In this document: one piece after another, positions 492-43,631 of the stretch
Position numbering within the stretch: the first letter of the stretch is position 1
How the letters are laid out: each line of letters begins with the position of its first letter
DNA from: Bacteroidales bacterium UBA7569
GTDB lineage: Bacteria; Bacteroidota; Bacteroidia; Bacteroidales; Paludibacteraceae
Reading direction: 5' to 3'
Length of the DNA stretch: 64,000 nucleotides
Assembly: GCA_002477945.1 (NCBI GenBank)
Contig: DLLF01000033.1
Span: 45,316 to 109,315, forward strand
Notes under the pieces: generated by a model
Told to the model about the DNA's origin: nothing
The model's database searches: none
The model's input: only the letters and a program-made list of their open reading frames with translations
Translations under genes and position numbers: made by a program

Positions 492-546
492 TAGCCGACC
501 TCGAGCCGACCTGGACGACCCCTGAAGCACCCCTCGACGAAAGATG
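492..546 (+). repeat. 11-bp periodic array, copy 1
   Basis: Units: tagccgacctc|gagccgacctg|gacgacccctg|aagcacccctc|gacgaaagatg. Lies in the dprA-to-kinase gap. Confidence 0.85.
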
Positions 547-636
547 ATATGCTTTATTACGGCGGTGACCGTTTGACTTATATGGGTATCATCGCCGGAA
601 CAAGGTGCTTATATTGTAGAAATGGAAAATATATAG

Positions 637-644
637 TACCTTTG
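637..644 (+). promoter_or_regulatory. Bacteroidetes -7 box TACCTTTG (kinase gene)
   Basis: Matches TAnnTTTG, 21 nt before ATG 666. Confidence 0.4.
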
Positions 645-665
645 CAAGTATAAAATTTCACCGCT

Positions 666-2348
666 ATGCAAAACGATATTACTATTTTCTGTAAGAATAC
701 ACGGCAATATCACAACGTCCCTCGGGGAAGTTCGGTATTGGAAGTGTATAAAATGTTGGGTATCAAATTACCATATCCCGTAGCGGCTGCGCGAGTGAAT
801 TACAAAGTCGAAGATCTCAATTTTACGCTCTATCGCCCCAAAGATATAGAATTTATAGATGTCAGTTGCCCCAGTGGAATGAGATGTTATGTGCGTACGC
901 TGAGTATGGTGCTTAGTTGCGCAATACATGAGTTGTACCCTCGTGCCGACCTGCGGATAGAGCACCCGATATCCAAAGGATATTATTGCACGATCCAGTG
1001 GCGCAAAGACAGTGAGTCTCATCCCGCTCTCGGCAAGAAGATGATTGCCGATATCCGCCGGAAAATGCAGCAGATTGTGGAAGAAGATCGTCCTATCATT
1101 ACAGAGGAGCGGAGAACGCAGGATGTCATTGAGATGTTCCATGAACATACGGATGGCGAATCCAATCTCTTTGAAACCTTTGGTGAACCATATACCCGTT
1201 ATTTCCGCATGGGAGACTATATTGACTATTACAATGGTGTCTTGATGCCGAGCACGGGATACATCTCCCTCTTTGATTTGGAACCGTACTATGATGGTAT
1301 GTTGTTGCGCATCCCTAATCGGGAAAAACCTGTACGGTTGGAGGATAACACGCCACAAGAGAAAACCTTTGGTATTTTCAATGAGTATATTGGTTGGAAT
1401 CAGTTGATGCATATCAACAATGTAGCCGACTTCAACATTGCCTGCAAAAAGCACGAAGCCTTTGATATGATCAAGTTGTCAGAGGCTCTCCATGAGAAAA
1501 AAGTGGCTCAAATCGCAGATATGATTGCCAATAGAAAGGGAGGAAGACCAAAGTTTGTCTTGATTTCAGGACCTAGTTCTTCCGGTAAAACCACTTTCTC
1601 GAAACGGCTCACCATACAGTTGCGGCTCAATGGTATTACACCCGTCGTAATCAGTATGGACAACTATTTCGTGAATCGTGAGGATACGCCTCGCGACGAA
1701 AACGGCGAATGGGATTTTGAAGACATCAACGCTTTGGACTTGGACCTTTTCCGCAGCCAACTCTCCGATTTGTTGCAAGGAAAAGAAATAAGTCTCCCTA
1801 CGTTTAATTTCGAGGATGGCAAGCGGCATTACTTGGGAAACAAACTGAAAATGGAGCAGGATAATATCGTGATTTTGGAAGGTATTCATGCACTCAATCC
1901 GTCTCTCATACCCAATATCCCAAAGGAAGCCACGTTCAAGATATATGTATCGGCACTCACTACCATTAACTTGGATAACCACAACTGGATCCCCACTACC
2001 GATACGCGATTGTTGCGCCGCATTATCCGTGACTATCGTTACCGCAACTACTCCGCTCGGGAGACCATCGCACGTTGCAACAGTGTGAAGCGCGGAGAGG
2101 AAAAGTGGATATATCCCTATCAGGAGAATGCCGATGCGATGTTCAATTCTGCTCTTCTCTTCGAATTGGCAGTCTTGAAACGTCATGCGGAGCCTATCTT
2201 GGCGGAAGTGCCCAAACATTGTGAGGAATATACGGAGGCTCACCGTCTTCTTAAATTCCTGCAGTACTTTGTGAGCATACCCGAAAAGGAAATCCCGCCT
2301 ACGTCTCTGTTGCGCGAGTTCGTCGGAGGAAGTTCGTTCCGCTACTAA
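666..2348 (+). CDS. uridine/nucleoside kinase family protein with N-terminal ThrRS-like TGS + SAD-like region
   Basis: 560-aa ORF. Walker A GPSSSGKTT is followed by a PRK/uridine-kinase-like region (ILEGIHALNP, RRIIRDYRYR). The N-terminus resembles a TGS fold plus HELYP...GYYC of the ThrRS second additional domain. TAnnTTTG box at 637-644. Confidence 0.75.
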   Translation: MQNDITIFCKNTRQYHNVPRGSSVLEVYKMLGIKLPYPVAAARVNYKVEDLNFTLYRPKDIEFIDVSCPSGMRCYVRTLSMVLSCAIHELYPRADLRIEHPISKGYYCTIQWRKDSESHPALGKKMIADIRRKMQQIVEEDRPIITEERRTQDVIEMFHEHTDGESNLFETFGEPYTRYFRMGDYIDYYNGVLMPSTGYISLFDLEPYYDGMLLRIPNREKPVRLEDNTPQEKTFGIFNEYIGWNQLMHINNVADFNIACKKHEAFDMIKLSEALHEKKVAQIADMIANRKGGRPKFVLISGPSSSGKTTFSKRLTIQLRLNGITPVVISMDNYFVNREDTPRDENGEWDFEDINALDLDLFRSQLSDLLQGKEISLPTFNFEDGKRHYLGNKLKMEQDNIVILEGIHALNPSLIPNIPKEATFKIYVSALTTINLDNHNWIPTTDTRLLRRIIRDYRYRNYSARETIARCNSVKRGEEKWIYPYQENADAMFNSALLFELAVLKRHAEPILAEVPKHCEEYTEAHRLLKFLQYFVSIPEKEIPPTSLLREFVGGSSFRY

Positions 2349-2362
2349 AAATAGGATTGTTA

Positions 2363-2836
2363 ATGAAGCGTTTGTTCATATTTGGTTTGCTGTTGCAGGT
2401 ATCCCTGCTATTGTGTGCTACGGCTGATGAAACCGCTATGGATTCTATAGCATCTCAGCGCGCAAGCATTTTTGAAGCGATGGGCGAAGAGGTCGTAGTC
2501 ATTTCCGATCCTTCTATTGATCGTGTTCTGCTCGACAAAATCAATAATGTCCATCGTGAGCAGGTCGCTATACAAGGTTTCCGTGTGCAGGTCTTTTCGA
2601 GCAACCGTCAGAAAACGGCGAAGGCGGATGCCTATAAAGTGGAAAAGTTAGTCAAGGAATCCACAATTGAAGCCCCTGTTTATGTAATCTACAATCCTCC
2701 TTTCTTCAAAGTGCGGCTGGGCGATTTTCGCACGAAGGACGAAGCGCAGGCATTCTTGGAAGAGGTCGTACGTACATTGCCGCAATTGCAATCAGAGACC
2801 TATGTCGTACGCGACCAAATACAGGTTATACAATAA
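2363..2836 (+). CDS. SPOR domain-containing secreted protein
   Basis: Signal peptide MKRLFIFGLLLQVSLLLCATA. C-terminal GFRVQVFSS...VRLGDFRTKDEAQAF is SPOR-like. ATG 2363 preferred over TTG 2357. Confidence 0.75.
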   Translation: MKRLFIFGLLLQVSLLLCATADETAMDSIASQRASIFEAMGEEVVVISDPSIDRVLLDKINNVHREQVAIQGFRVQVFSSNRQKTAKADAYKVEKLVKESTIEAPVYVIYNPPFFKVRLGDFRTKDEAQAFLEEVVRTLPQLQSETYVVRDQIQVIQ

Positions 2837-2851
2837 AGAGACTACAGACCT

Positions 2852-3436
2852 ATGGATATGCAATCTTTTACTCCATCTTCGGAGAAGACCGGCGAAATAG
2901 CAAACTCTGTAAGGCAGATACTCTGCTTGTTGGGAGAAGACCCTGATAGAGAGGGACTCTTGAAAACGCCGCAACGGGTCGGGGAGGCTTACCAGTTTCT
3001 CTGCAAAGGATATTCGGAAGACGCAGTGGCGATTCTGCGTTCCGCTCTCTTTCGTGAAGACTCCGGTCAAATGGTATGTGTGAAAGACATTGAATTCTAT
3101 TCCCTGTGTGAGCACCATTTGTTGCCGTTCTTCGGGAAAGTGCATATAGCCTATATTCCGGATGGGACTATCACGGGACTGAGCAAATTGGCACGCGTTG
3201 TTGACGTGTACGCACACCGTTTGCAGGTGCAGGAACGTATGACGCACGAAATATTGGACAGTGTCAATACCGCATTATCACCTGTTGGGGCAATGGTCGT
3301 CGTAGAAGCGCGGCACCTTTGTATGCAGATGAGAGGCGTGCAAAAAACAGATGCCGTCACAACCACAATGCAGTATTCAGGTGCATTCAACCAACCCGAA
3401 TTGAGAGAAGAGTTTCTTCAGCAGATTCGGTTGTGA
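2852..3436 (+). CDS. folE: GTP cyclohydrolase I
   Basis: 194 aa with the family signature [18 protein letters not shown] plus ERMT and [14 protein letters not shown]. Confidence 0.95.
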
Positions 3437-3450
3437 TCCTCACAATAGGT

Positions 3451-3473
3451 TCAGCGGTAAATAAACCGCTCAA
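3451..3473. terminator. weak shared hairpin between convergent folE and porZ
   Basis: ttcagcggt-aaataa-accgctcaa (8 of 9 bp). Confidence 0.3.
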
Positions 3474-3488
3474 CTTGTTCTTTGGCTA

Positions 3489-5780
3489 TTATTGTAAAAA
3501 GAGAATCTTGACCAAAGCGTATTCGTCTCCTGCTTCATTGTTGCAGTGGGCGTAGTAGATTCCGCTGCGGACTTTCTTGCCGTATGCATCATTTCCGTCC
3601 CATATAGCGATACCGCCGTTCGATAATGTGGTGCAAATGAGATTGCCTGCTGTATCTGTTATCTTGACGGTCGAATTGTCCGATAATTTCGCTATGGTAA
3701 TAACACCATCGAATCCGGGTCTTATGGGATTGGGATAAACGTATGCTTCGCTCAAATGGTTCATGCCTTTGGCTGCATCACTTTGATAGGACACCAACCC
3801 GCCGTCTGTTCCGATGAACACTTCGCCGTTTTCGTCATTCGTGGCAATCGCTATCACGTTATTGGATAGTAATGGGGAGTTTTCTGCGGTGAAATGCTCT
3901 ATTGTTTCTTTTCCGTCCGACGACATTAGATACAAACCCGAGGAGGCTGTGCCGATCCATTTCCTGTTTGCTCCGTCCACGGCAATGGCGTTGATACTTT
4001 CATCATTCAAGAGGTAGTCGGCAAGGTTTGTTCCGTCGTTCCTTCTTATCTTTATGCGTGTGCAGGCATTTGATGTGAAGAGGCTCTCCGGACTCTCAAA
4101 TGTCAGGATGCCGCTGTTTGTTCCAACCCAGAGAGCACCGGATTTGTCCTGGGCAATGGAGAGTATCAACTCTGGCGTGAGTTCATTCCCGTCTTGATCT
4201 ACAAAGGACGAATAGAATACCCCTTTGTCATCCTTGCTGTTGTCGATGGTTCCGTTATCATCAAATATACCTATTCCTGCTGCCGCTCGGGCACTGTTCA
4301 AGATCTTAACATTCGGGTTTTTATTCCAAATAAGCAGGTTTTTGCAACGGGCCAACTGGTCGGTGGCTGCATTTTCTATGGAATACCATTTTCCGGTGCT
4401 TGTTAGAACTTTTACTCCGTCTGCGGCTTTGTTGTACATCCAAAGGTTGTTGTTCCCGTCCACGGTCAACGCATCCACCCATGTATATTTCTCAGGAGAC
4501 TCTATCTGAGCAACCAATGGACTGTTCAGTTGGTTGTAACGGGCGTAAAATGCATTGTCCCTGAATTCTATCAAGCCATATCCGAACGAGGCAACGAAGA
4601 AATGGGATGGATCTCCGTTCAGGCAGATGACATCACTATAGTCCTCCGTATAGACACCTATCTTTTCTTGAAAGTACGTTTGCGGGAAGTTTGTCCATTC
4701 GCCGGAGTCATAGATCGCTACACTGCCGCTCCTGTTATAATATACGGTCAGATAACCGCCAGGGACAATAAATACTCTGTCTTCTTTTACTCGGATCCGA
4801 TATGCGCTATTACTTACCGGACCGGAAGGGATATAATGGTTTACACTCATATCCTTTGTGTCATATTTCCCTATACCGGCAGCGTGATAAGCAAACCAAT
4901 ATGTTCTGTTCAAAGCATCATATGCCACATCCGCCGCACCGATAAAAACAGAAAGAGGAGATGCCGTCATGTCATCATTTATTTCATATACAGATTGGCT
5001 CGTTAGTGCATACAATCTGTCTCCATAGGTTTTGATGCTTTCTATTTTATCTACTGCATTATATGTAATCCATTGATTTTGCTCTCTTGTGTAAAGTTTA
5101 CCGCCTCTCAAAACGCATAGTTGGTTGTTGAAAACCGTAATTTGTGTGATGTCTCCATTTCCGGGCATTCCTTTCCGCGCATTCCAATAAGCATAATCCA
5201 CCAAATTGTCCTGCAATCCTGCTGTGTAGATCGCATCGGAAGATGCAGCATAGATAGAGTCCCCTGCGATACAAATGGAACACACCTTCACTTTGGAGGC
5301 TTTGTTTCCGATATAGTATGTATCTTGTATTTCTTTTTGTCTCAAGTTTAATACCAGTACACCGAAATCCATAGATATATATGCTCTGTCCTTGTGCAGA
5401 TAAATGGAATTAGCCCTCTTGCTCATGTTGATTTGCGCATTGTATAAATCTGGTATGTTGTAAACGGAATTGTCATCATAGAGTATGTCTATGTTTCCGT
5501 CAGCATACATGAGTAAGAGCCCGTGTATATCTTCCGAATAACGCATTTGAGTGATGTTAAAATCATTCAAGCCCATCAGTTTGTCGCAACGCACTATAAC
5601 TTCAGTCTCTTTGTCTGTGTAATATAATGCACCTTCACTCAGGGCATACACGCGTTTTTCATTCTGTTCAATCAAAGTCACATCATTGTAGGCATAATGA
5701 ATGCGCCATCCATGCATTTCCGTTTGCGACCAAACCTGTGGACAAAGGAACAGCAAAACAACAAACAAATATCTTTTCAT
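3489..5780 (-). CDS. porZ: PorZ-like T9SS protein (beta-propeller regions with Reg_prop-type repeats plus C-terminal sorting domain)
   Basis: About 763 aa counted from MKRYLFVVLLFLCPQVWSQ. Repeated motifs ALWVGTNSGILTF, RKWIGTASSGLYLMS and EVFIGTDGGLVSY. C-terminal VYPNPIRPG...GIYYAH...VKILFLQ resembles a T9SS CTD. Its ATG overlaps the rdgB stop (ATGA). Confidence 0.55.
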   Translation of the reverse strand: MKRYLFVVLLFLCPQVWSQTEMHGWRIHYAYNDVTLIEQNEKRVYALSEGALYYTDKETEVIVRCDKLMGLNDFNITQMRYSEDIHGLLLMYADGNIDILYDDNSVYNIPDLYNAQINMSKRANSIYLHKDRAYISMDFGVLVLNLRQKEIQDTYYIGNKASKVKVCSICIAGDSIYAASSDAIYTAGLQDNLVDYAYWNARKGMPGNGDITQITVFNNQLCVLRGGKLYTREQNQWITYNAVDKIESIKTYGDRLYALTSQSVYEINDDMTASPLSVFIGAADVAYDALNRTYWFAYHAAGIGKYDTKDMSVNHYIPSGPVSNSAYRIRVKEDRVFIVPGGYLTVYYNRSGSVAIYDSGEWTNFPQTYFQEKIGVYTEDYSDVICLNGDPSHFFVASFGYGLIEFRDNAFYARYNQLNSPLVAQIESPEKYTWVDALTVDGNNNLWMYNKAADGVKVLTSTGKWYSIENAATDQLARCKNLLIWNKNPNVKILNSARAAAGIGIFDDNGTIDNSKDDKGVFYSSFVDQDGNELTPELILSIAQDKSGALWVGTNSGILTFESPESLFTSNACTRIKIRRNDGTNLADYLLNDESINAIAVDGANRKWIGTASSGLYLMSSDGKETIEHFTAENSPLLSNNVIAIATNDENGEVFIGTDGGLVSYQSDAAKGMNHLSEAYVYPNPIRPGFDGVITIAKLSDNSTVKITDTAGNLICTTLSNGGIAIWDGNDAYGKKVRSGIYYAHCNNEAGDEYALVKILFLQ

Positions 5781-6358
5781 AAGCAGTGATGATTGATATA
5801 TTCCCATAATGCAGCGATTGCCTTGCTGCGGTGACTTATATGGTTCTTTTCGGTATGCCCCAATTGAGCAAATGTCTGAGTGTATCCTTTTGGGATGAAT
5901 ATCGAATCATATCCAAAGCCCTGTTCTCCGTATTCTTGAGTGCTTATACTCCCTTCCGCAATCCCTTCAAATTGATGTACTTCGCCTTTTATGATCAATG
6001 TGATAACTGTTCTGAACCGTGCCACTCTGTTTGGGCAATCTTTCAACTCTTGTAACAACTTCTTCCTGTTTTGTTCGGGATTGCTTGGCTCTCCTGCATA
6101 TCGTGCCGAATATACACCGGGAGCGCCGCCTAAGGCGTCCACCTCCAGACCTGTGTCGTCTGAAAAGCAGTCTATACAGCATTGATCGTAAATGTAGCGT
6201 GCTTTCTGTAATGAATTACCCTCTATCGTGGGTGATGTCTCAGGTATCTCTGCTGTACAATTGATATCTTCCAAACTTAAAACTTCCACTTTCCCCGAGA
6301 ATATCTCACGGACTTCTTCCAGTTTCTGGGCGTTGTTGGTGGCAAATACTAACTTCAT
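5777..6358 (-). CDS. rdgB: non-canonical purine NTP (dITP/XTP) pyrophosphatase
   Basis: 193 aa with KLVFATNNAQKLEEV, DDTGLEVDALGGAPGVYSARY, FGYDSIF and SHR motifs of the RdgB/HAM1 family. Confidence 0.9.
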   Translation of the reverse strand: MKLVFATNNAQKLEEVREIFSGKVEVLSLEDINCTAEIPETSPTIEGNSLQKARYIYDQCCIDCFSDDTGLEVDALGGAPGVYSARYAGEPSNPEQNRKKLLQELKDCPNRVARFRTVITLIIKGEVHQFEGIAEGSISTQEYGEQGFGYDSIFIPKGYTQTFAQLGHTEKNHISHRSKAIAALWEYINHHCL

Positions 6359-6365
6359 ACGACTG

Positions 6366-6373
6366 CAAAGATA
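6366..6373 (-). promoter_or_regulatory. possible -7 box TATCTTTG (rdgB-porZ)
   Basis: Matches TAnnTTTG on the minus strand but lies only 7 nt from the rdgB ATG, which would imply a near-leaderless mRNA. Confidence 0.3.
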
Positions 6374-6399
6374 CTACTAATTATGTACTTTCAGAATAA

Positions 6400-6443
6400 A
6401 TATATCAAAAAACTGTTCCCCGCTGTTCTCTTTTTTGATATAT
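6400..6443. promoter_or_regulatory. AT-rich 13-bp inverted repeat enclosing a CTGTTC direct repeat (candidate operator)
   Basis: atatatcaaaaaa-ctgttccccgctgttctc-ttttttgatatat, in the divergent rdgB/uxaB control region. The function is inferred only. Confidence 0.3.
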
Positions 6444-6552
6444 AATGCGGATTGACAGTGCATTGTTTCTAATATATACAAATTTATAGAAGCCCCTTAA
6501 ATAATTCCACAAAAAATGTCAGTTTATGTGTGCAGCCTTGTTGGTTTAGCAG

Positions 6553-6560
6553 TACTTTTG
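6553..6560 (+). promoter_or_regulatory. -7 box TACTTTTG (uxaBA)
   Basis: Matches TAnnTTTG, 70 nt before ATG 6631. No well-spaced -33 TTTG. Confidence 0.4.
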
Positions 6561-6630
6561 TATCGCTTGTAAGGTTCACTCTTTGTTGTGGACAAATGGC
6601 GAATGTCTGTAACGTAAAAAAACAACTAAC

Positions 6631-8109: not shown

Positions 8110-8163
8110 TAATTTGTAGCAACAGGGAGAGGAATACTTTCCCTGTTGCCTTATTCTTTTTCT

Positions 8164-9657: not shown

Positions 9658-9695
9658 TTCCATAATCATAATTGATGTTATCTGTTGTTTGTGTC

Positions 9696-9734
9696 TCCCC
9701 TTGTAAGGACTGTCTTACAAGGGGATTTTATTTT
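9696..9734 (+). terminator. intrinsic terminator of uxaBA
   Basis: 12-bp stem tccccttgtaag/cttacaagggga, loop gactgt, then ttttatttt. Confidence 0.85.
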
Positions 9735-9889
9735 CTTGGATCCTGTGCGTATCAACCTGTTTGCCTGTATCTTTTCAGGTATCCCATAATTTGACTGTCA
9801 GTAAGGATTGATGAAATGGAATGGTATGAATCATTATTTTTCCTTATGTCAGATTATGTCTGACTCAAATGAGTATACTGTGAGGTTTC

Positions 9890-9933
9890 TACGACCCCTT
9901 AAGCCGACCTGACCGACCCCTCAACGAGATGTC
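9890..9933 (+). repeat. 11-bp periodic array, copy 2
   Basis: Units: tacgacccctt|aagccgacctg|accgacccctc|aacgagatgtc. Lies in the uxaA-to-glxK convergent gap. Confidence 0.85.
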
Positions 9934-10104
9934 GATAATATAGATCCCATCCCATCCTTTGGAGGGAATGGGAGATCCAAATTGTCCAATCGTAGATAAT
10001 ATACTCCATCAACGGTGCTCCCAAGAGCGTCTCGATAAAATAGAGTTAGAGTAAAATCCGAGTGTCAGCGGGTCTGCAACTTTGCGGCATAGTATCGGTA
10101 CGTC

Positions 10105-10144
10105 TTCCATTAAGACCGGTTGGATTGAACCGGTCTTAATGGAA
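10105..10144. repeat. perfect 17-bp inverted repeat with 6-nt loop
   Basis: ttccattaagaccggtt-ggattg-aaccggtcttaatggaa. Lies 99 nt beyond the glxK stop. No U/T tract on either strand. Confidence 0.9.
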
Positions 10145-10242
10145 CATCTTCTGTACGGCGGCTTTCGTAACATTGGAATTGCTCACGGTATGGATTACCA
10201 CCATTCCCGTTAGTGCCTTGGTTGGTGCGGGAGGCTATGGTG

Positions 10243-15619: not shown

Positions 15620-15889
15620 TGTGTGATATTCATGATATTTTTGTTGGAATGAATAAGCATACTGCAAATTTCGATAAAGTTCTTCATATTTGCAAATTGC
15701 GTTACGCCAATAGCAGGGCAATCCTGTCCTATGGTAACAAAAGGTTGAGTTTGAACGTAATGGAATGGTAGTACTGACGTAGTATTTGTTTTATGCCCGA
15801 GGTCTTATTCTAATAAGGTACTAAGAAGACCATTCATTAAGGGCTTTCGCTTCTTATTATGTCATGCGTTGTTGTCCCTGCCAGACTTC

Positions 15890-15944
15890 AAGGACACCTC
15901 AACGAGACCTGAAGCACACCTGAATGAGACCTGAAGCACGATAA
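15890..15944 (+). repeat. 11-bp periodic array, copy 3
   Basis: Units: aaggacacctc|aacgagacctg|aagcacacctg|aatgagacctg|aagcacgataa. A possible degenerate unit tgccagacttc lies just upstream. Sits between two minus-strand genes. Confidence 0.88.
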
Positions 15945-15980
15945 AAAAGGCTACTACTCTTTCAGAAAGTAGCAGCCTTT
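15941..15980 (-). terminator. intrinsic terminator of the OM beta-barrel gene
   Basis: Stem aaggctactact/agtagcagcctt with one mismatch. The minus-strand reading is followed by tttttt. Confidence 0.65.
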
Positions 15981-19276: not shown

Positions 19277-19350
19277 GGCGGGATAGCTCAGCTGGTTAGA
19301 GCGCATGATTCATAATCATGAGGTCCCCGGTTCAATCCCGGGTCCCGCTA
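19277..19350 (+). tRNA. tRNA with anticodon CAT (elongator tRNA-Met, or tRNA-Ile2 if lysidine-modified); no encoded CCA
   Basis: Hand-folded cloverleaf. Acceptor 19277-83 pairs with 19343-49 (G1:U72 wobble). D arm GCTC/GAGC. Anticodon stem CATGA/TCATG with loop TTCATAA (CAT at 19311-13). T arm CCCGG-TTCAATC-CCGGG. No initiator features (no 1:72 mismatch, no three-G:C anticodon stem). Confidence 0.9.
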
Positions 19351-19351
19351 C

Positions 19352-26469: not shown

Positions 26470-26495
26470 AGGGTCTAATGGATGTATTGTAAGTG

Positions 26496-26503
26496 CAAAT
26501 GTA
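26496..26503 (-). promoter_or_regulatory. -7 box TACATTTG (serB)
   Basis: Matches TAnnTTTG on the minus strand, 27 nt upstream of ATG 26469. Confidence 0.4.
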
Positions 26504-26652
26504 CAACAAAAAAGACATATTCCAATCTTTTGGAATAATTACTTTATACAAACTTATGTAGGCTTTCTTCGTATCTTTCTGTTATCTGTTTCCCGACTTC
26601 CGGACCGCACACAAGACATTGCTGTATCTTTCAAAAACAAGGAACAGATTTC

Positions 26653-26707
26653 TACGACCCCTCATCGAGACCTGAACGACCCCTTGACGGGAAACCGACA
26701 CGGAGAC
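26653..26707 (+). repeat. 11-bp periodic array, copy 4
   Basis: Units: tacgacccctc|atcgagacctg|aacgacccctt|gacgggaaacc|gacacggagac. Lies in the serB/rfbB divergent gap. Confidence 0.8.
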
Positions 26708-26785
26708 CAATAGATTATTTTGGATAGTGTCACATCTCCGGAATGGTCATTGTCTGTTATATCTCGTATGCCCTTTTTGCGCAAA

Positions 26786-26817
26786 TTTGTATAAGTATGG
26801 GGAAAATGTTACCTTTG
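26786..26817 (+). promoter_or_regulatory. -33 TTTG / -7 TACCTTTG promoter (rfbB)
   Basis: TTTG at 26786-89 and TACCTTTG at 26810-17 with a 20-nt spacer. ATG at 26843. Confidence 0.55.
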
Positions 26818-26842
26818 CAATCATAAACATTATCTCATAAAG

Positions 26843-33907: not shown

Positions 33908-33962
33908 TACGACCCCTCATCGGAACCTCAAGCACACCTGAACGAGAGACTAAGCGGGGGAA
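33908..33962 (+). repeat. 11-bp periodic array, copy 5
   Basis: Units: tacgacccctc|atcggaacctc|aagcacacctg|aacgagagact|aagcgggggaa. Lies in the convergent gap between the acyl-CoA ligase and lipoprotein genes. Confidence 0.82.
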
Positions 33963-34097
33963 ACATTTCTTTGGTAAGGATACAATGAACGCAATCTCTT
34001 GAACTTTTCAGTTTTTTCAATCACAAATCAACCTGTAAACTAATTGGAAGGTCAATCACGGAAGTCGTTGTGTAGAATGGTATTGCTAATTCTGGTT

Positions 34098-34136: not shown

Positions 34137-34154
34137 TTGTTCAAAGTGGTGAAG

Positions 34155-34450: not shown

Positions 34451-34490
34451 GGATGCTGACTTTTTTTACTGATTTTTCGCCGAATTATCT

Positions 34491-35813: not shown

Positions 35814-35825
35814 TATTATATACTG

Positions 35826-36668: not shown

Positions 36669-37468
36669 AACAGACCTCCTTTCTGTGCATCGGTTTCCTC
36701 ATCATTGTTGCCGAAGAAACTCGTCAGGGCTATGATAACAAGCATGATGAGTGACAAGGCGGCTCCGTAATTCCACATACTCAATCCTCCCTCTCCGAAT
36801 GCGCGTTGTATGAGCGAACCGAATAAAGTAATCTTGTTCCGTGTCAGAAGTTCCGAGATGGCAAAAGTGCTAACGGTCGGCATGAAAACCATGATAACAC
36901 CGCTGTATATACCTGGCGTGGAGAGGGGAAGAACCACTTTCTGGAATATCTCCCTTCGGTTGGCTCCCAAATCCGAGGCCGCCTCAATCAGCGAACGATC
37001 CATCTTTTGAAGCGTGTTGTATATCGGATAAATCATAAAGGGAAGGAAATCATAACACATACCGAAAAGCAAAGCCCCCTCTCCTAAAGGGAGGGAAAAC
37101 ATATTAAAAAGTTCCACGGTCGCAATCGTACGTAGCAGGAAGTTTATCCACATCGGCAAAATGAAGAGCATTGCCATCACTTTGGGGGTCGAAAACTCTT
37201 CTGCGGCCATGATATAGGCTGCCGGATAACCTATTAAAAGACATATAAAGGTCGTAATCAACGCAATGGCCAATGAGTAAATGAACGTGTTAACCGCTTC
37301 GGAGGTCGAAAAAAACTGCGTGAAATTACGAAGTGTGAAGTTTCCTTGCGGATCCTGAAATGCGTAGAACAGAATCAGCAGAAGGGGTAAAATCACAAAT
37401 AGGATGAGAAACAATATATATGGCCATGCCCACGAACGGCGGCTGCCGAACAATACGGATAGTTTCAT
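36665..37468 (-). CDS. potB: spermidine/putrescine ABC transporter permease
   Basis: 267-aa polytopic permease with an EAA loop ([21 protein letters not shown]). 4-nt overlaps on both sides. Confidence 0.82.
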
Positions 37469-38925
37469 GCTTGTCCCTTTCTGATTTGGATGCTATTGGG
37501 AGCAATCTCTATTCCCACTCTGTCCCCGTCGTCCCAAACATCGTTGGTGTCAACATACAGGTCGTCTCCGTCGTCTGTGCGGATAGTCAAATGATAGTGA
37601 TCTCCTTTGTACAGGATGAAATGCACCTCGCCGGAAAGAGTCCCGTCTTCCTCATAGTCTTGCAGATTGATCTTGTCGAAATCTACAGCGACTTCCACCG
37701 GTTGCCCAACGTCAAACTGTCGCGCCTTTTCTTCTCCTATTTCCCATTCTGCACCCAGGAAACGTACCTTGTTATCCGCTGTAATCTCACCTTCAAAGCG
37801 GTTATGCAGACGCTCTTTCTTCATCACTTGTATGTCCTCTGGCTTTACGAGCATACCCACTTCCATTCCGGCAGGAAAGGCGTGGTAATCTTGCACCATG
37901 AATTCATAACCGTTTTCGGTGTTGATGAGCATTTCATAGTGTACGCCTTTGAAGATGCAACTCTCCACTTTGCCGTAGAAATGGGTGAAGTTTCCTTTAG
38001 GGATACGGTCGTCGGGGTCATAGTCGGCCTGCTGTTCTGCGATGGTTGTCTTGGTGGAGTTGTCCCAAATATATATGTCTTCCGGGCGGATGACAACATC
38101 TACGGGAGTGTTTTCGCCAAAACCCTCGTCAATACAGTCAAATTCCAAGTCGCAGAAACGGACACGTCTGTCACGTACCATTACGGCATTCAGGATGTTG
38201 CTTTCTCCTATGAAGTCCGCCACAAAAGCATTCTGAGGCTCATTGTACACGTCTGTGGGCACACCGATTTGCTGTATCTTCCCCTCGTTCATGACAACCA
38301 CCCTGTCCGATAGCGTTAAAGCCTCCTCTTGATCGTGAGTTACATAGATGAACGTGATGCCCAATCGCTTGTGCATCTCCTTGAGTTCTATCTGCATATC
38401 TTTGCGCATCTTCAGGTCCAAAGCGGCTAAAGGTTCGTCTAATAAGAGTACTTCGGGTTGGTTCACAATCGCTCTGGCAATGGCTACACGCTGCTGCTGA
38501 CCGCCCGATAAACTGTTTACATCGCGTGCTTCATAATCAGTCATGCCCACTGTTTTAAGGGCTGTACGGACACGTTTCGCAATAACGGCTTTGTTCAGAC
38601 GGCGAAGTTTTAAGCCGAAAGCCACATTGTCAAATACGTTGAGATGGGGAAAAAGGGCGTATTTCTGGAATACTGTATTTACCGGACGTTTGTGCGGTGG
38701 CGTTTTGGTCACGTCCTGCCCGTTCAGAAGTATATCACCGCTCGTGGCAACCTGGAAACCTGCTATGCAGCGCAGCAAGGTGGTCTTACCACAGCCCGAA
38801 GGCCCGAGAATTGTTACAAACTCGCCTTTCTCTACCGAAAGGCTTACATCGTCCAAGGCGAACTTCCCGTCCTCGAACTGTTTGGACACATGGTTCACCT
38901 CAATAATGTAATTTGGTTCTTGCAT
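37465..38925 (-). CDS. potA: spermidine/putrescine ABC transporter ATP-binding protein with extended C-terminal region
   Basis: Start at ATG 38925 ([17 protein letters not shown]). Walker [10 protein letters not shown], signature [14 protein letters not shown], Walker B LLLDEPL. About 240 aa follow the ABC core. Confidence 0.88.
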
Positions 38926-38991
38926 TATCGTTAAATCTACTATGGAACACAAAAGGTAAATCTCATAAATACGCTGTTTGTAAACGCACCG

Positions 38992-39023
38992 CAAAGGTAC
39001 AAACTGTTTTCCGTTTCTGCAAA
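38992..39023 (-). promoter_or_regulatory. -33 TTTG / -7 TACCTTTG promoter (potABCD)
   Basis: Minus strand: TACCTTTG at 38999-92 and TTTG at 39023-20 with a 20-nt spacer. ATG at 38925. Confidence 0.5.
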
Positions 39024-39199
39024 CCCCTCTTGTTCGCTCGTGTTGTCATGATCCCCGTCTTCTTCGATACGCTCCCCAATGAGTGTTGGTATATGTCTTG
39101 TCATCTTTTCTTGGTCAAAACAAATTGCCCGCATCTCCTTTCTGACATTCAGAAGAATACGCAGGCAATTCACCACAAAATATATCTGTCAAATGTTTT

Positions 39200-41389
39200 T
39201 CAATTTGCATTGTTGCCTAAAATATCATACAATGCTTCCCCTCTTTGGATGAACACACGCCCGTTAACTAACCGTTTCATAGGCATATCATTGGTCTCCG
39301 CCTGGTCTATGGCGGTGGTATTCTTTACTAAGCATGACACAGGAATACGGATTGTGGCGGCACCTTTGGAATTCATTGTCATATAGGCTTCGTACACTCC
39401 CTCTGCGTCTTGCAGCAAAGCAATTGCGGCTACGCCTCCTTCGGCGGGCAATTCAATCGTTGTGGAGGGGTTTGTCGTAGTAGCAGTTGCCATGGCAAAA
39501 CTGTTTGGATTGGCTCCTCCCAATGTTATCTTGATTGGCTCTGTCAGGTTTTGTCCTGTTACCTTAAACTCTACTCCGCCCGCAACACTCGGTTTTGTTT
39601 GGAAAGCCACTTGAGAATGGTCGCAAGTGATTATGGGAAGGTTGGGATTTCCCCATGTAATGTCATCCACATAATAGGTCACAGCACCATTGGTGCCGCT
39701 CGGACCGACATAACGGAACGCCATATAGAAGACATCGGCTATATTGTCCGAACCTGCTAGATTGACGTGGATATCCACCCATTTGCCTTTCTCATCCGCA
39801 GTGGACGGAATGCCTGCTGCTATTTTCTCCTTATGAACATTCGCAGGATCTGTAGCGTCTATATAATAGAGTTCTAAAGCGGTAGTCATTCCGTCAAACA
39901 GATAATCCCCTCGCACACGGAAGGTAAAGACTTGGTTGGCGGCATTTTTGTAGTCCAGAGCAGGTGTTACAAGCCATATTTCCCATTCAGTGTCGTCTGT
40001 CTGTCCGCTGACAAAAGCCGTTGCTTTGGCGCAATCCATCTGTTCGCCATTGAGTTCATCAATACTCAACCATGGTTTTTTACCTTCCACCACCACATTC
40101 TGCCAATTCGCCAACTGTAGTTGCTCGTTATGTCCGGCGTTGTCAAAACGCTCTATCAGAACACGTTGAGGGCTTTTGTTGTCGAAAACAAACTCTGTGT
40201 TGAAGTCGTCTGGCTTCTCTTCTCCTGAGGTAGCCGTCCCGCGTAGGGCAATGCGTTGCGCTGTCCCGCCTTCAGTCTGATAATATACGGTAGCACTGTA
40301 TTCGCCCGCTGCGAGAGGATGGAATGTGATAACTGACCTGCCGTTCTGCACATTGGCAGGCATCAATGTGTTATTGATGGTGAATACACCTGGGGATTGG
40401 TTGTTCAATAGGGAGATCTCTATGTTTCCGGTACAGTTGATACCATTGACCAGTATGGTTTTCGTTATAGTTTCTCCCGCTGTACACTCGAATTCTTCAA
40501 GTGTTGTAGGGGTAATGGTTATTTCGGGCTTGAGTGTTGGATCACTCGCCGAGCCGGACACCGAAAGAGTCTGATTGAGCGTCGGCACTTCTGAAGACTC
40601 TATAATGAGCATGGCTCTGTGCTGTCCTGCCGCCGTAGGCGTATATGTCAGTTTGACCACCTCTTCTGCCGCCGACACCTGTTGCTTGTCTAATGAGAAC
40701 ATCGCACTGCCTGTCCCTGTCAGATAAACCGATACGGGTTGAGTGAGGTGGCCTTGACGGATAGTGATGTTCCCGACCGTTTTGGTTTCTCCTACTTTGG
40801 CGTCCGATTTAGGCAGTGTGGCAGGCGAAACGGTCAGCCATGGTTCTGTAGCCTCTGTGCGTTCCAAACGCCAATCGTCTAACAGAAGCAAGGTCTTTTT
40901 GGCGTATGCCATACTCACCACCAACTTGGTCGCACCGACAGGTTTCGAAGTCTTGATTGTCACTGTCTGCCAACCGTCTCCCTTGCTCAATGTTTGTGTC
41001 AGCACTTCTTCGTCGTGATTGAGTACTCCGTCCCTCGGGTGTTCCCATACGCAGTTGAGCCAAACGGGTTTCTCTGCTGTGTAACTGAGCAGTTTGTAAC
41101 GGAACGTGAGTTCAAAAATTTGCCCGTCTGCCTCATTGGTCATGCTCACTTCTTGGGTTATATTGCTTGCCGTATTGGCTTCTGTAAAGCGCAGAGCCTG
41201 CTCTCCTTCAAGGATATCTGTTGTCTCAATGGTTGTAATGGCTTTGCATTGCCATGAATCCCAATCATATCCGTAAAGGGCATTGGCCTTGGCAGACTCG
41301 AATCCTCCGTTGTCAAGCAGGTTGTCAGCCGCGGTAGCCGGTATGCACATTGCGCTGCAAAGGAGGAAGAATAATAGTACTTTCTTCAT
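39200..41389 (-). CDS. large secreted multidomain surface protein (CBM-like N-domain, Ig-like repeats, choice-of-anchor-J-like domain)
   Basis: 729 aa. Signal peptide MKKVLLFFLLCSAMCIPATA. N-terminus DNLLDNGGFE as in CBM4/9-type modules. Repeated Ig-like segments (..PVSVYLTGTGSAMFSL.., ..IEISLLNNQSPGVFTI..). A W/G-rich block ending YYVDDITWG. The function call is tentative. Confidence 0.5.
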   Translation of the reverse strand: MKKVLLFFLLCSAMCIPATAADNLLDNGGFESAKANALYGYDWDSWQCKAITTIETTDILEGEQALRFTEANTASNITQEVSMTNEADGQIFELTFRYKLLSYTAEKPVWLNCVWEHPRDGVLNHDEEVLTQTLSKGDGWQTVTIKTSKPVGATKLVVSMAYAKKTLLLLDDWRLERTEATEPWLTVSPATLPKSDAKVGETKTVGNITIRQGHLTQPVSVYLTGTGSAMFSLDKQQVSAAEEVVKLTYTPTAAGQHRAMLIIESSEVPTLNQTLSVSGSASDPTLKPEITITPTTLEEFECTAGETITKTILVNGINCTGNIEISLLNNQSPGVFTINNTLMPANVQNGRSVITFHPLAAGEYSATVYYQTEGGTAQRIALRGTATSGEEKPDDFNTEFVFDNKSPQRVLIERFDNAGHNEQLQLANWQNVVVEGKKPWLSIDELNGEQMDCAKATAFVSGQTDDTEWEIWLVTPALDYKNAANQVFTFRVRGDYLFDGMTTALELYYIDATDPANVHKEKIAAGIPSTADEKGKWVDIHVNLAGSDNIADVFYMAFRYVGPSGTNGAVTYYVDDITWGNPNLPIITCDHSQVAFQTKPSVAGGVEFKVTGQNLTEPIKITLGGANPNSFAMATATTTNPSTTIELPAEGGVAAIALLQDAEGVYEAYMTMNSKGAATIRIPVSCLVKNTTAIDQAETNDMPMKRLVNGRVFIQRGEALYDILGNNAN

Positions 41390-41432
41390 AACTGCTATAT
41401 GTAATATGTTATAGGTTTGCTGTAGTGATAAT

Positions 41433-41469
41433 ATACCCCAAGAGTATTGTTCCGATGCTCTTGGGGTAT
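41433..41469 (-). terminator. hairpin between the two tandem secreted-protein genes
   Basis: Perfect 12-bp stem ataccccaagag/ctcttggggtat with a 13-nt loop. The downstream T tract is weak. Confidence 0.45.
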
Positions 41470-41478
41470 GAGGATAAA

Positions 41479-43329
41479 TTAGCGAACCACCTTGTAGGTA
41501 GTCTTGCCTTGACGGACAATATTCACGCCGGGTTGAAGTGCAGAAACGCGAATACCCGATGGGGTATAGATTTCCATTTCATCTTCCGTCGTTGTATTCT
41601 CTATAGCCGTAGGAGGTCCCGCAATTTTCTCAATGTCTTTGTCTGTGCGGAGTTGCAGATAATAAGAACCGAAACTCGTATTCCATATACCCGTGATATT
41701 GGCTTTGACAGGTTTTGCTTCCCCTGCCAGGACTGCCGCATTCACTTTGATCGTCTCATCACCTTGGGCGCAATCGGTTTGTGTGCTTGCAAACTCTCCT
41801 GATTCAAAGGTCACGCCCTCTATCTTCAGCAAACGATAGAGATAGTTCGCCTTGTTGGCATTCAGTTCTGCCAAAGTTACAACGGTAGGAATAGTAGTAT
41901 ATCCCGAGCCTTCTATCTCAAAGTATGTCGCGTAGTAGGTGCCATAATCATAAACCGCTATCACATCCATAACTCTGTCTCCCATAACCAAGGGTATATT
42001 CACATCCCCTAAATACAAGTTGCGATCCAGCCGCATAGCCCCTGTCTCATCTTCTATATAAACAATGCCTGCTTTCGAAAATGTAACGATAGCCGTACCG
42101 GTGAACATAAGACCCTCTTCGTGAGTGGAAGTTTGCAAAGCCTCTTTCCAACTTGCTATGGTGGGATATGTCGGTGTCGGAGCGGTCACGGTCCATGCGT
42201 ATTTGATTTCTTTCTTGGTATCTCCTTGTGCAACGGTTATGGTAATTTGATTCTCGCCACTGGTTGCTGCGGTGTTCCGGATAATCACGGTATCACCTGT
42301 CTCCGACATCACTTTGTCTTTGTCTAAGGTAGCACCTTTGATGATTGTGATATTCTCATGTACACATGTCGTGGTGATGGCATCGTCACTCAGGTTCGCA
42401 CCTTTCACTACAAACGTATCCACGAATACTTCGTTCTGAACGTGATACTCTGAGGTGGCACTCGTCTTTTCTATCGACAAGGTCGCAACCGGCTTGGGGT
42501 CATCGCCTCCGCTTGTCTCAAAAAGGTCTGCCCACGCAGTTGCCACACGAATGGCATCAATCGTCATTGCTGCCATAGCCTTGGAAGCGGTAGTGCCTTG
42601 CCGCAGTTCAATGCCTTGCAAACCGTTCTTTGTGCTGGCATCGCCTTGGGAAACATCAGCAGAAATGGTGGCTGCAGGTTCTGCTGTAGCATCTGTTGTC
42701 GGGTTTACCCACAAGGTAACGACGTCATTCGTTGCTCCATCCACAAACTCATATTTGATAACCATAAGATAAGTCTCACCCACGTTCAGTTCCTCGGTTG
42801 TCTCGCTCGGGGCGGCATTGTTCTTACTGACACCAAACTTGAACTTGGTATCGTCTGAACCTGCCATTACAAAGGCTCGACCGTATTCTGTAGCATTTAC
42901 ACCATCAACCCAGCCTTTTGAGGTCTTCCCTGTGAACCCTGTAAAATAAGTATTGGCATTGGTGGCATTCGTTACTTTTACCAGCATGGCGGCATATATA
43001 GTACCCGATACAAATGCCTCCTCCGATGTTGCAAAAGCAATCTGCAAATCTTCACCTAGGTTCGTACCTTTCAACTCGACAGCCTTCCCTGCCGCCGTAT
43101 TCTGATAGCCGGTGTATGTCAAAGCCCTGTCAACCACTTGAATAGGGTCTTCCGAGTTCGTACCATATTTAATCCACCCCAAACCGGTCGGATCTATTGT
43201 CTTGCCTTGACCATATAGACCGCCTGCAGCATAGTCAAAGTTCTCTGTCAGTAGTGTAGTAGCCCGTGACGTGCAGGGCATCGATACCATGGCTGCAAGT
43301 AGCAGCCCGAGAAGTAATTTTTGTTTCAT
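41479..43329 (-). CDS. secreted protein with putative T9SS C-terminal sorting tail (function unknown)
   Basis: 616 aa. Signal peptide MKQKLLLGLLLAAMVSMPCTSRA. C-terminus ...EIYTPSGIRVSALQPGVNIVRQGKTTYKVVR resembles the last strands of a type-A CTD. Confidence 0.5.
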   Translation of the reverse strand: MKQKLLLGLLLAAMVSMPCTSRATTLLTENFDYAAGGLYGQGKTIDPTGLGWIKYGTNSEDPIQVVDRALTYTGYQNTAAGKAVELKGTNLGEDLQIAFATSEEAFVSGTIYAAMLVKVTNATNANTYFTGFTGKTSKGWVDGVNATEYGRAFVMAGSDDTKFKFGVSKNNAAPSETTEELNVGETYLMVIKYEFVDGATNDVVTLWVNPTTDATAEPAATISADVSQGDASTKNGLQGIELRQGTTASKAMAAMTIDAIRVATAWADLFETSGGDDPKPVATLSIEKTSATSEYHVQNEVFVDTFVVKGANLSDDAITTTCVHENITIIKGATLDKDKVMSETGDTVIIRNTAATSGENQITITVAQGDTKKEIKYAWTVTAPTPTYPTIASWKEALQTSTHEEGLMFTGTAIVTFSKAGIVYIEDETGAMRLDRNLYLGDVNIPLVMGDRVMDVIAVYDYGTYYATYFEIEGSGYTTIPTVVTLAELNANKANYLYRLLKIEGVTFESGEFASTQTDCAQGDETIKVNAAVLAGEAKPVKANITGIWNTSFGSYYLQLRTDKDIEKIAGPPTAIENTTTEDEMEIYTPSGIRVSALQPGVNIVRQGKTTYKVVR

Positions 43330-43576
43330 AGGTTAGTGTTTTTTATTGTTTGTACCTGCAGTATCTCACTGCATTAAACTGATGTCTGTGCAAAGGTGGT
43401 GAAAATAATCTATATGCACAAATTTTGCATGGCATATTTTCCAAGGCAACTGTATTAAGACGGATAGTACTCAGGGTAGTTTCCAGATGAAGCCTCAAAG
43501 AAAAAACTAAAATTCTTATGGTCATACTGCGGTTGCCTTGTGGTATATTCCTGTTCTGTACCGAGTCGCTTGATTT

Positions 43577-43631
43577 TACGAGACCTCAAGCACCCCTGAA
43601 GCACCCCTCAACGAGTCCTGAACCATAGTTT
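43577..43631 (+). repeat. 11-bp periodic array, copy 6
   Basis: Units: tacgagacctc|aagcacccctg|aagcacccctc|aacgagtcctg|aaccatagttt. Sits between two minus-strand genes. Confidence 0.88.

Follow-up and report, generated by a model that had tools for sequence, protein, structure and literature searches.

Dispersed 45-55-base arrays with an 11-base rhythm in Bacteroidales: probable copies of a mosaic repeat of intergenic DNA

Introduction

What kind of element leaves a short array of degenerate 11-nt units in one intergenic gap after another, and why does it stay there? The question is raised by a stretch of 64,000 nucleotides from Bacteroidales bacterium UBA7569 (the window), for which a preliminary description reported six such loci. 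To our knowledge, repeats interspersed in intergenic DNA have been studied well in Proteobacteria and Firmicutes and are barely described in Bacteroidota, where BrickBuilt of P. gingivalis is the main example. We confirm here that the six arrays are true copies of a dispersed 45-55-base repeat family with an internal 11-base rhythm. The system is lineage-restricted and occurs in a few uncultured Bacteroidales genomes related to Paludibacteraceae.

Results

Reading the sequence at each locus placed all six arrays where they had been reported, on the plus strand. Array c1 (492..546, +; identified by PWM and pattern matches) reads TAGCCGACCTC GAGCCGACCTG GACGACCCCTG AAGCACCCCTC GACGAAAGATG and has dprA (+) on one side and a PRK-family gene (+) on the other. 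Array c2 (9890..9933, +; pattern matches) consists of TACGACCCCTT AAGCCGACCTG ACCGACCCCTC and the tail AACGAGATGTC and lies in a convergent gap, flanked by the genes for altronate dehydratase and for glycerate kinase. Two minus-strand genes flank c3 (15890..15944, +; AAGGACACCTC AACGAGACCTG AAGCACACCTG AATGAGACCTG AAGCACGAT), which adjoins their terminator hairpin (15946-15980), while c4 (26653..26707, +), beginning with TACGACCCCTC ATCGAGACCTG AACGACCCCTT GACGGGAAACC, sits between the divergent promoters of serB and an rmlB-like gene. Array c5 (33908..33962, +; TACGACCCCTC ATCGGAACCTC AAGCACACCTG AACGAGAGACT AAGCGGGGG) is found in a convergent gap 3' of an AMP-binding enzyme gene, and c6 (43577..43631, +; TACGAGACCTC AAGCACCCCTG AAGCACCCCTC AACGAGTCCTG AACCATAG) is neighboured by a fumarase (-) and a DUF5689 (-) gene. 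The degenerate three-unit pattern CCTBDHBSVVHCCTBDHBSVVHCCTB gave nine matches in the window, all inside the six loci; 100 dinucleotide shuffles gave 0.00. A second pattern, fitted to the whole set of six copies, gave seven matches, with 0 in the control. Tandem Repeats Finder independently reported period 11 at 510-540, 15883-15936 and 43584-43611, and period 22 at 15883-15939. The long identical strings noticed earlier were recovered as well: an 18-mer at 518 and 43592, a 16-mer at 26652 and 33907, and a 14-mer at 15904 and 15926 within c3. The units are contiguous and in phase, as had been proposed; their number per array is three to five.

None of the six arrays lies inside an ORF, in agreement with their description as non-coding and strictly intergenic, and in three genomes the count of copies inside ORFs is 0/44, although at least 82% of the examined DNA is ORF. 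The array-bearing gaps measure about 358, 585, 279, 373, about 410-480 and 484 nt (c1 to c6), so that the reported restriction to gaps longer than about 350 nt is roughly true; the exact cut-off fails, however, at c3, whose gap of 279 nt, counted to the ATG at 15721, falls short of an array-free tRNA gap of 298 nt. A common strand is not a rule either, since another copy, the seventh (L022 193-225), is oppositely oriented and was found 9.8 kb to the left of the window. The density is about one array per 9 kb, and strict matches number 31 in two assemblies of one other genome. Convergent gaps hold nine copies and divergent gaps 11; in tandem gaps, eight copies are co-oriented with the genes and seven anti-oriented. 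The neighbours are unrelated housekeeping genes.

The picture of a free-standing tandem array is not supported, because the copies share position-specific, ordered units and defined ends. The element begins with U1 (TACGACCCCTC, the first unit in 33 of 47 arrays), continues with a variable U2 (A[AT]SSVVACCTS), U3 (AAGCACCCCTS; shared among copies as AAGCACCCCTC) and an optional extra unit, and ends with the tail AACGAGAGATG. Unit order is conserved and the tail is kept between genomes. Each 11-bp direct repeat has a conserved core of 7-8 bp and a variable spacer, and neighbouring cores are exactly 11 nt apart in 107 of 118 cases. A plain minisatellite or VNTR, which would have near-identical units in freely variable number, was rejected, the units being position-specific (U1, U2, U3, tail) and only three to five in number; orthologs differ by a whole unit in one case. 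In CRISPR arrays, unique spacers stand between repeats of 23-50 nt and are about as long as these, and the CRISPR reading fails, as anticipated, because the 11-nt units are contiguous without spacers. The earlier statement on terminal inverted repeats also stands for the family as a whole: in the window, the flanks of the six copies are unalignable and no inverted-repeat pair is common to the gaps. In composites of another genome, unit 2 of the array could pair imperfectly with the tail of partner module B, but this pairing is internal and not at the ends, where MITE copies have their shared terminal inverted repeats. The left end often follows the trinucleotide YTC, which keeps to the periodicity of the units and has no second copy at the right end. 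Among the array copies examined we found no mobility agent, no terminal inverted repeat and no evident target duplication. Ordered units of this kind bear on the idea that the arrays are operators: an OmpR/PhoB-type response regulator with a winged helix would occupy the 11-bp direct repeats head-to-tail and control the adjacent promoters. The core-and-spacer design suits such a regulator, and in this genome five of the seven copies have a promoter-like TAnnTTTG box 90-240 bp downstream of them. However, the nine copies in convergent gaps have no promoter to serve, the density is about one array per 9 kb, the housekeeping genes alongside include no cognate binding-protein gene and form no coherent regulon, and conserved ends and ordered units point to one copied master sequence rather than to independently evolved operators. 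We consider operator arrays very unlikely.

The array is module A, the core of a mosaic repeat system with partner modules B (a hairpin with a G-rich tail), C (ATCGTAAAT repeats), D and E (CCTAT-type arrays). The evidence comes from other Bacteroidota genomes, from the sister species and from the second array of the window. Modules occur in the orders C-A-B, A-B, A-C, A-D and D-C-A-B in other Bacteroidota genomes, all co-oriented, and the ortholog of c4 in the sister species, where a 132-nt module block stands within the array, reads A-C'-hairpin-B-C-A'. In the window, c2 is an A-B-C composite with a near parallel in L032 of another genome. Its array is followed by a B-like module (9945..9973, +), a small hairpin CCCATCCCATCC ttt GGAGGGAATGGG that shares 12 nt exactly with module B and whose fold (-8 kcal/mol, z-score -1.05) is weak taken alone, and by a C-like module (9979..9999, +; AAATTGTCCAATCGTAGATAA) that matches module C at 20/21 positions (E = 8e-5). 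In the manner of MITEs, the family is multicopy, intergenic and non-coding and differs in presence between lineages, being absent from 60 kb of the next relatives.

Could the arrays act as RNA? The strand bias in composition invites the question, as arrays are 65% A+C, with C at 35% against 22% G and 13% T. A sense transcript would be C-rich, G-poor and unstructured, with CCU every 11 nt, and might load Rho or titrate an RRM-type Rbp, thereby insulating neighbouring transcription units or ending antisense and read-through transcripts. A rut site is a C-rich, G-poor, unstructured stretch of 60-80 nt of transcript, in sense orientation 3' of a transcribed unit. In line with this, the arrays lack stable structure (z-scores of -1.26 to +0.38 for the six arrays on both strands, about 0 overall), their span of 44-55 nt is near the footprint of Rho primary sites, as generally known, and convergent gaps place many copies behind co-oriented genes. 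RbpB of B. thetaiotaomicron, moreover, binds multicopy sRNAs at single-stranded 5' regions, which speaks in favour of binding of this type (PMC11697453). On the other hand, orientation is unrelated to flanking transcription, as the near-even split in tandem gaps indicates, and the flanks have no such compositional skew. The copies also have no promoter of their own: within 150 nt upstream, the TAnnTTTG (Bacteroidetes -7) box was found in 3/46 copies in sense and 1/46 in antisense. As had been supposed, Rfam gave no match for the arrays at the gathering threshold or at E<=10, neither with the FopS model nor with any other, and no matching repeat is described in the searched literature. The conservation of idiosyncratic units, finally, goes beyond the needs of a compositional rut site, and we regard an RNA-level role as unlikely. 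A small RNA gene family of the FopS/GibS kind, with a promoter of its own at a fixed distance and a terminator, was likewise rejected, given the lack of an Rfam match, the box near only 3/46 copies and upstream flanks that are less conserved than any other part of the gaps.

The copies descend from a common source, are restricted to intergenic DNA, are modular and persist at orthologous sites. In two related species at about 84-88% DNA identity, arrays are kept at 4/4 testable orthologous gaps, where they form the best-conserved islands of otherwise poorly alignable gaps. Pooled identity to the orthologs is 139/165 (84%), compared with 52% and 59% in the adjoining 100 nt on each side, a comparison that rests on four pairs. 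Array c3 is identical at 39/40 positions in the sister species, c5 at 34/41 in the third species (flanks 40-48%) and c6 at 33/44 in the third species (flanks 42-51%); c4 is the exception with a modest margin, 82% against 67-70% in its promoter-holding flanks. Substitutions spare the phased CCT..A.SS positions: differences amount to 3/83 at unit positions 1, 2, 3, 7, 8 and 9 and to 21/70 at positions 0, 4, 5, 6 and 10. This split was chosen post hoc and has a Fisher p of 8e-6; with the core A1+CCT, defined a priori, p = 0.018. No indel breaking the 11-nt phase appeared in the ortholog or unit-spacing comparisons. Homogenisation to a consensus does not explain the conservation, because the idiosyncratic sequence of c3 is itself conserved. 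The best reading of these comparisons is that the copies are probably retained by purifying selection. One may ask whether the arrays are instead functionless relics, left solo and decaying after a single expansion of a MITE-like mosaic element in the lineage, so that apparent conservation would come from alignments anchored on low-complexity sequence, from gene conversion or from a mutation rate that is low at these sites. Several observations fit such decay. The window copies diverge from each other and mostly lack partner modules, c4 resembles a deletion derivative of a longer composite, and three arrays coincide with synteny breakpoints; the array family was not found in 60 kb of the next relatives, and the many near-identical copies of the other genome look like a recent burst. 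Persistence at every testable orthologous gap, a conservation that exceeds the rest of these gaps, position-specific differences inside the unit and a phase unbroken by indels argue against relics, however, and we find them an improbable explanation.

Discussion

Our preferred explanation, to which we give about an even chance, is that the arrays are copies of one interspersed mosaic-repeat element, spread by copying and retained by selection as a putative helically phased platform on duplex DNA. Copies would have dispersed by copy-and-paste or by recombination, and those retained would probably present one 8-bp CCTsaASS site per turn over three to five successive turns, serving a putative sequence-specific binding protein or a DNA-structural effect; the element would act neither as RNA nor as gene. 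We favour action at the DNA level over the RNA level because orientation is gene-independent, the -7 box is rare, fold z-scores are about 0 and the spacing is 11 nt. As in phased operators, the direct repeats lie about one helical turn apart and share a conserved core. Comparable platforms are the parC centromere of plasmid R1, with 10 x 11 bp bound by ParR, and the 7+4 bp repeats of Pho boxes or SARP sites. They are similar in their 11-bp direct repeats with conserved core and variable spacer, three to five or more units and one helix face, but they are limited to one or a few loci that belong with a partition operon or a regulon, whereas the arrays recur about every 9 kb in all gap types. 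Two observations stand as counterpoints to a duplex platform: the strand skew is easier to rationalise with a single-stranded reader (RNA or ssDNA), and the exact 11-nt period could be mere inheritance from tandem duplication.

The array family is best read as an undescribed repeat of the known mosaic kind (BIME, BOX, BrickBuilt), nearer to those than to a gene or an RNA. The preliminary description had held it to be unlike REP/BIME and the P. gingivalis minisatellite element; a mosaic of modules in fixed order and orientation is, however, the same principle. The REPs of enterobacteria, known from the work of Gilson, Bachellier and Hofnung, are imperfect palindromes (stem-loops) of 20-40 nt in alternating orientation, are mobilised by RAYTs and, with BIMEs, are docking sites for DNA-binding proteins (gyrase, IHF). 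Short, dense extragenic repeats, mosaics of regular order, placement in convergent and tandem gaps and conservation at some orthologous sites are common to both systems, but the array module is non-palindromic (fold z-score about 0) and all modules share one orientation. In Streptococcus pneumoniae, BOX elements (boxA-boxB(n)-boxC) have a 45-nt boxB unit, stable folds and MITE-like ends. They are likewise modular, intergenic and without coding capacity, with a central module in variable tandem number; unit length, stable structures, ends and host phylum set them apart. BrickBuilt, a P. gingivalis MITE, has a 23-nt unit in 1-22.8 copies and small terminal inverted repeats; like the arrays, it belongs to Bacteroidales, is always intergenic in tens of copies, and has an imperfect short tandem core without spacers, a unit number that varies by locus and separate 'leader' and 'tail' modules that are partly or wholly absent (PMC4596501). 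The present arrays differ in their 11-nt unit, their three to five units of fixed order and the absence of shared terminal inverted repeats in the window; in this comparison of described organisation, no similarity in sequence was noted. The TAACTGA direct repeats of Beggiatoaceae and the cyanobacterial STRR are intergenic heptamers that resemble the arrays in forming many dispersed sets of few direct copies of a short, lineage-specific unit, and differ in their 7-nt period, near-identical units and the lack, in the abstract, of described mosaic partners (PMC4679880).

To these systems the family adds a module that is short, non-palindromic and phased at 11 bp and on which purifying selection is measurable, together with a mosaic grammar of partner modules. 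If the platform is true, an abundant DNA-binding factor or a DNA-shape signal would organise intergenic regions in a major lineage of the gut and of anaerobic digesters; if it is false, the family still serves to mark genome rearrangements, to mask repeats and to type strains of uncultured organisms. The next relatives carry a different dispersed 11-nt array, TCATCCTATAT; in this sister clade, another 11-bp unit has an equal positional role. More speculatively, and with low probability in our view, both kinds of array might be 'punctuation' elements of intergenic DNA, phased to the helix and maintained by selection, in which one short site per 11-bp turn over three to five turns would be read by a putative lineage-specific DNA-binding protein or as DNA shape; Bacteroidales would then have a class of architectural or insulator elements of the chromosome that is so far undescribed. 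The period would then have been kept between the clades while the unit sequence turned over.

Results

Six arrays of degenerate 11-nt units had been recognized from the sequence alone, and all of them are present on the + strand, at 492-546, 9890-9933, 15890-15944, 26653-26707, 33908-33962 and 43577-43631 (first to sixth array), as are the 18-, 16- and 14-nt strings reported within them, each where it had been placed. Within the window, a position weight matrix built from 21 in-phase units gives three or more consecutive 11-nt hits at these six loci only. The period of 11 was called independently by Tandem Repeats Finder, with a period of 22 at the third array. An excess over shuffled sequence, which the preliminary description had asked for as a check, is clear: degenerate three-unit patterns match 7-9 times, compared to 0.00 in 100 dinucleotide-preserving shuffles. 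A seventh copy lies on the opposite strand ~180 nt upstream of mreB, at 193-225 of L022, a contig of the same organism that extends the window leftwards.

The intergenic location holds throughout, since 0 of 44 arrays overlap an ORF in DNA of which ORFs make up at least 82%. The arrays do sit in the largest intergenic gaps of the window, but the proposed threshold of 350 nt is only approximate, as the gap of the third array measures 279 nt and an array-free gap at a tRNA gene 298 nt. The tRNA is a tRNA-Met (CAT) at 19277-19351, inside this 298-nt gap ahead of recJ, and neither Rfam nor ARAGORN reports anything else in the window.

The anatomy of the array, here termed module A (A-type or CCT-SAA type), was derived from 162 units in 47 arrays, which come from the window, from its relatives and from two further genomes. 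The unit reads [A/T]A[C/G][C/G]A[C/G][A/C]CCT[C/G] with a nearly invariant CCT, and the core-to-core spacing is exactly 11 nt in 107 of 118 cases. Three strict units are found in 28 arrays, four in 17 and five in 2. The first unit is TACGACCCCTC in 33/47 arrays; AAGCCGACCTC and ATCGAGACCTC are among the variants of the second, AAGCACCCCTC is the usual third, and a degenerate tail, AACGAGAGATG, closes the element. Because the units are position-specific, the array is one ordered element of 45-55 bp with internal periodicity that was copied many times, and this series rules out independently grown microsatellites. On the + strand the arrays contain 65% A+C and 13% T, while their flanks are unskewed. 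The arrays do not fold on either strand (z-scores between -1.26 and +0.38), and terminal inverted repeats common to the copies are absent, as had been stated before.

The genes beside the arrays are unrelated housekeeping genes, and the gaps comprise 11 divergent, 9 convergent, 8 co-oriented tandem and 7 anti-oriented tandem arrangements. Since all gap types and both orientations are seen, the orientation of an array bears no relation to the transcription of its neighbours. A canonical Bacteroidetes -7 box (TAnnTTTG) occurs within 150 nt upstream of only 3/46 arrays and on the antisense side of 1/46. Replication-strand polarity was considered and rejected, as orientation is uncorrelated with local GC skew, GC3 skew and gene-strand bias (35 loci). 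Neighbouring arrays 5-11 kb apart point the same way in 10 of 11 pairs (binomial p ~0.006; pairs drawn from the window and loci L026, L028, L029, L040 and L047), and this coexists with the missing match to local GC skew or gene strand.

Module A also occurs in other genomes. When one genome was scanned for each species, four copies of the same architecture were recovered in JBNMIS01, a MAG labelled Bacteroidales, and a metagenome scan gave 31 strict matches, every one of them in assemblies ERZ808277/8. These represent a Bacteroidota genome that encodes SusC/RagA and a long SecA, and a single 397-kb contig of it holds up to 12 of the strict matches. In this genome module A is joined to recurrent partner modules, always co-oriented, in the orders C-A-B, A-B, A-C, A-D and D-C-A-B. 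Module B is a hairpin (CCCCTCC-ttt-GGAGGGG) with a G-rich tail, module C reads AAAATCGTACATCGTAAATnnTCCAATCGTAAATAA, module D includes CTCGAACAACTATAACGTCTAT, and a further module, E, consists of pyrimidine-rich ATTCGTCC/ATCTGTCC repeats. The tail of module B is an imperfect reverse complement of the array units; for instance, GAGACCTC and GAGGTCTC pair in predicted folds. The second array is the only one in the window with partners, a hairpin like B and a segment like C; the other five gaps share the array alone. The window comes from an uncultured Bacteroidales bacterium, as its glycerate kinase is identical to a protein that NCBI lists under 'MAG TPA ... Bacteroidales bacterium', and SerB homologues at 76-78% identity bear the Paludibacteraceae name.

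Two related species keep arrays at 4/4 examinable orthologous gaps. In the sister species (sample ERR2145023), whose DNA is 87-88.5% identical to the window, the third array is identical at 39/40 positions, compared to 60-68% identity in the remainder of the gap; this copy differs by one in its number of units and closes with the canonical tail. The third array is idiosyncratic and that very sequence is conserved, thus homogenisation to a family consensus is not the explanation. The fourth array of the sister species carries a 132-nt block (C fragment, hairpin, B, C) between array units, implying that the window copy either arose by deletion or represents the uninserted state. A block at 26565-26590 (CTTCGTATCTTTCTGTTATCTG), ~65 nt upstream of the fourth array, shows no difference in the sister species and includes a near-consensus -7-like box, TAtcTTTC. 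In a third species, with 84.4% identity over 20.7 kb, the fifth and sixth arrays persist and stand out as conserved islands from the remainder of their gaps (40-51% identity). A block of ~60 nt immediately downstream of the fifth array, at 33963-34030 (AAACATTTCTTTGGTAAGGATACAATGAACGCAATCTCTTGAACTT), is moderately conserved in this species, the rest of the gap not, and the functional unit at the fifth array may extend past the array.

Pooled array identity is 139/165 (84%), compared to 52% in the 100 nt upstream and 59% in the 100 nt downstream. Of 24 differences, 3 fall at unit positions 1, 2, 3, 7, 8 and 9 (83 sites) and 21 at positions 0, 4, 5, 6 and 10 (70 sites; Fisher p = 8e-6 for a split chosen post hoc). 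With an a priori core, A1 plus CCT, p is 0.018. Indels breaking the 11-nt phase are absent among the orthologous arrays compared. This substitution pattern shows selection on a phased 8-nt site (CCTsaASS), with successive sites 3 freer positions apart. It is against this pattern that a rival explanation, in which the arrays are functionless relics, has to be weighed.

A-type arrays are absent from ~60 kb of the next relatives, GCA_963648685.1 and ERZ15610561 (SerB 89-91% identical), a stretch covering the orthologous mreB-upstream, dprA-downstream, serB, LTD-upstream and fifth-array gaps. They carry another dispersed 11-nt array (E-type) with the unit TCATCCTATAT in 4-6 copies, two arrays per 21 kb, located at different, unalignable positions in the gap of the fifth array and the LTD-upstream gap, both of which hold CCT-SAA arrays in the window lineage (L060 3024-3072 and 17418-17462; L061 3178-3240 and 17305-17360; L064 2723-2770 and 15011-15055). 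The ends of these arrays are defined, running from ggttca directly followed by TCCTATAT to TATAAAACCTTCGAAA, and module E of the ERZ808277/8 genome resembles their unit. Replacement of an A-type by an E-type array at the same site was rejected, because the fifth-array gap has both at different, unalignable positions. A TCCTATAT-type 11-nt pattern also occurs in two IMG/VR viral contigs (L068 1280-1307; L069 303-330).

Compared to these relatives, the gene order of the window is rearranged, and the dprA, PRK-to-uxaA and serB-to-glycerate-kinase blocks are joined differently. The breakpoints between dprA and PRK (308-665), uxaA and glycerate kinase (9658-10242), and serB and rmlB (26470-26842) are the gaps of the first, second and fourth arrays. 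By a rough estimate, the chance that three breakpoints all fall into six of ~55 gaps is ~1e-3, although breakpoints and repeats alike tend to fall in long gaps.

Discussion

We show here that the copies of module A, a lineage-restricted interspersed repeat, go back to a master sequence, and that the module is confined to intergenic DNA, can be combined with other modules, and is long-lived at given sites. Among the mosaic intergenic repeats of bacteria it is a variant that had not been described before. The preliminary description had set the arrays apart from REP/BIME elements and the P. gingivalis MITE, implying that they were free-standing. Non-membership stands; the organisation does not, as the mosaic of modules resembles BIMEs, BOX elements and BrickBuilt. 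BrickBuilt, which belongs to the same order, combines a 23-nt minisatellite with a leader and a tail module and has 19 copies, all of them intergenic (PMC4596501). In contrast to these families, the arrays are non-palindromic, lack terminal inverted repeats, have 11-nt units in fixed order and use other partner modules, hence they belong to none of the three. The evidence that purifying selection acts in phase is unusually clear for this family, and the counterpart in the sister clade is intriguing.

The copies would have spread by a copy-and-paste or recombinational process, and the many identical copies in the ERZ808277/8 genome suggest bursts of spread. The copies that are retained probably work at the level of duplex DNA, as a platform offering one site per helical turn over 3-5 turns. 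An RNA-level platform for Rho or an RNA-binding protein is a rival explanation, and the asymmetry in composition between the strands would fit a reader of single strands. However, orientation is independent of transcription, the arrays have no promoters of their own and the period is strict, all of which argues for duplex DNA over RNA. The phased direct-repeat geometry is common to the arrays and to parC, iterons and Pho boxes, and a set of response-regulator operators is a further alternative to the platform. Yet parC, iterons and Pho boxes are tied to a cognate operon or regulon, while the arrays are not.

Other identities were tried and rejected. Rfam was empty for arrays and modules at the gathering threshold, at E<=10 for the window and at E<=5 for four related loci, in line with the earlier impression that the arrays match no published Bacteroidales RNA motif. 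FopS, a Bacteroides sRNA family, was deposited in Rfam by its authors (PMC11697453), so the arrays are not FopS. An sRNA gene in general fails the promoter, terminator and Rfam tests. Coding is rejected by the period of 11 and by substitutions that do not follow a codon-like pattern, a three-frame stop function by the many units that read CCTCAA and have no stop codon, and phage origin by the absence of the A-type pattern from IMG/VR. The six array strings were unmatched as exact text in the literature, and keyword searches returned analogues only.

Arrays of 11-nt units, such as AAGGAGACCTG, AAGGACACCTC and AAGCAGCCCTG, also occur elsewhere, mostly in non-coding DNA (L001-L006, L008, L009, L011-L013, L015-L019 and L021). 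The hosts are four Flavobacteriaceae, a Planctomycetota MAG (3 loci), a Hyphomicrobiales MAG (5 loci, up to 12 units) and several Actinobacteria, and several of these genomes hold multiple dispersed loci. We do not count these arrays as homologues, as the search pattern probably picked them and they may be unrelated: it admits 32 units for a perfect tandem repeat, and by our estimate generic 11-nt microsatellite hits are therefore expected in 596 Gb.

About 5 kb left of the window, a 746-nt divergent gap (L022 4878-5623) is dense with other repeats. These include CATAAGAATCA in 2.8 perfect copies, GCGAGATATAT in three, and TTTGCAAAnnAATTCCGCnAACGGGT in three copies, two direct and one inverted, together with an inverted copy of module B (GACCTCTCCAACCCCTCCAAAGGAGAG) and a second small hairpin.
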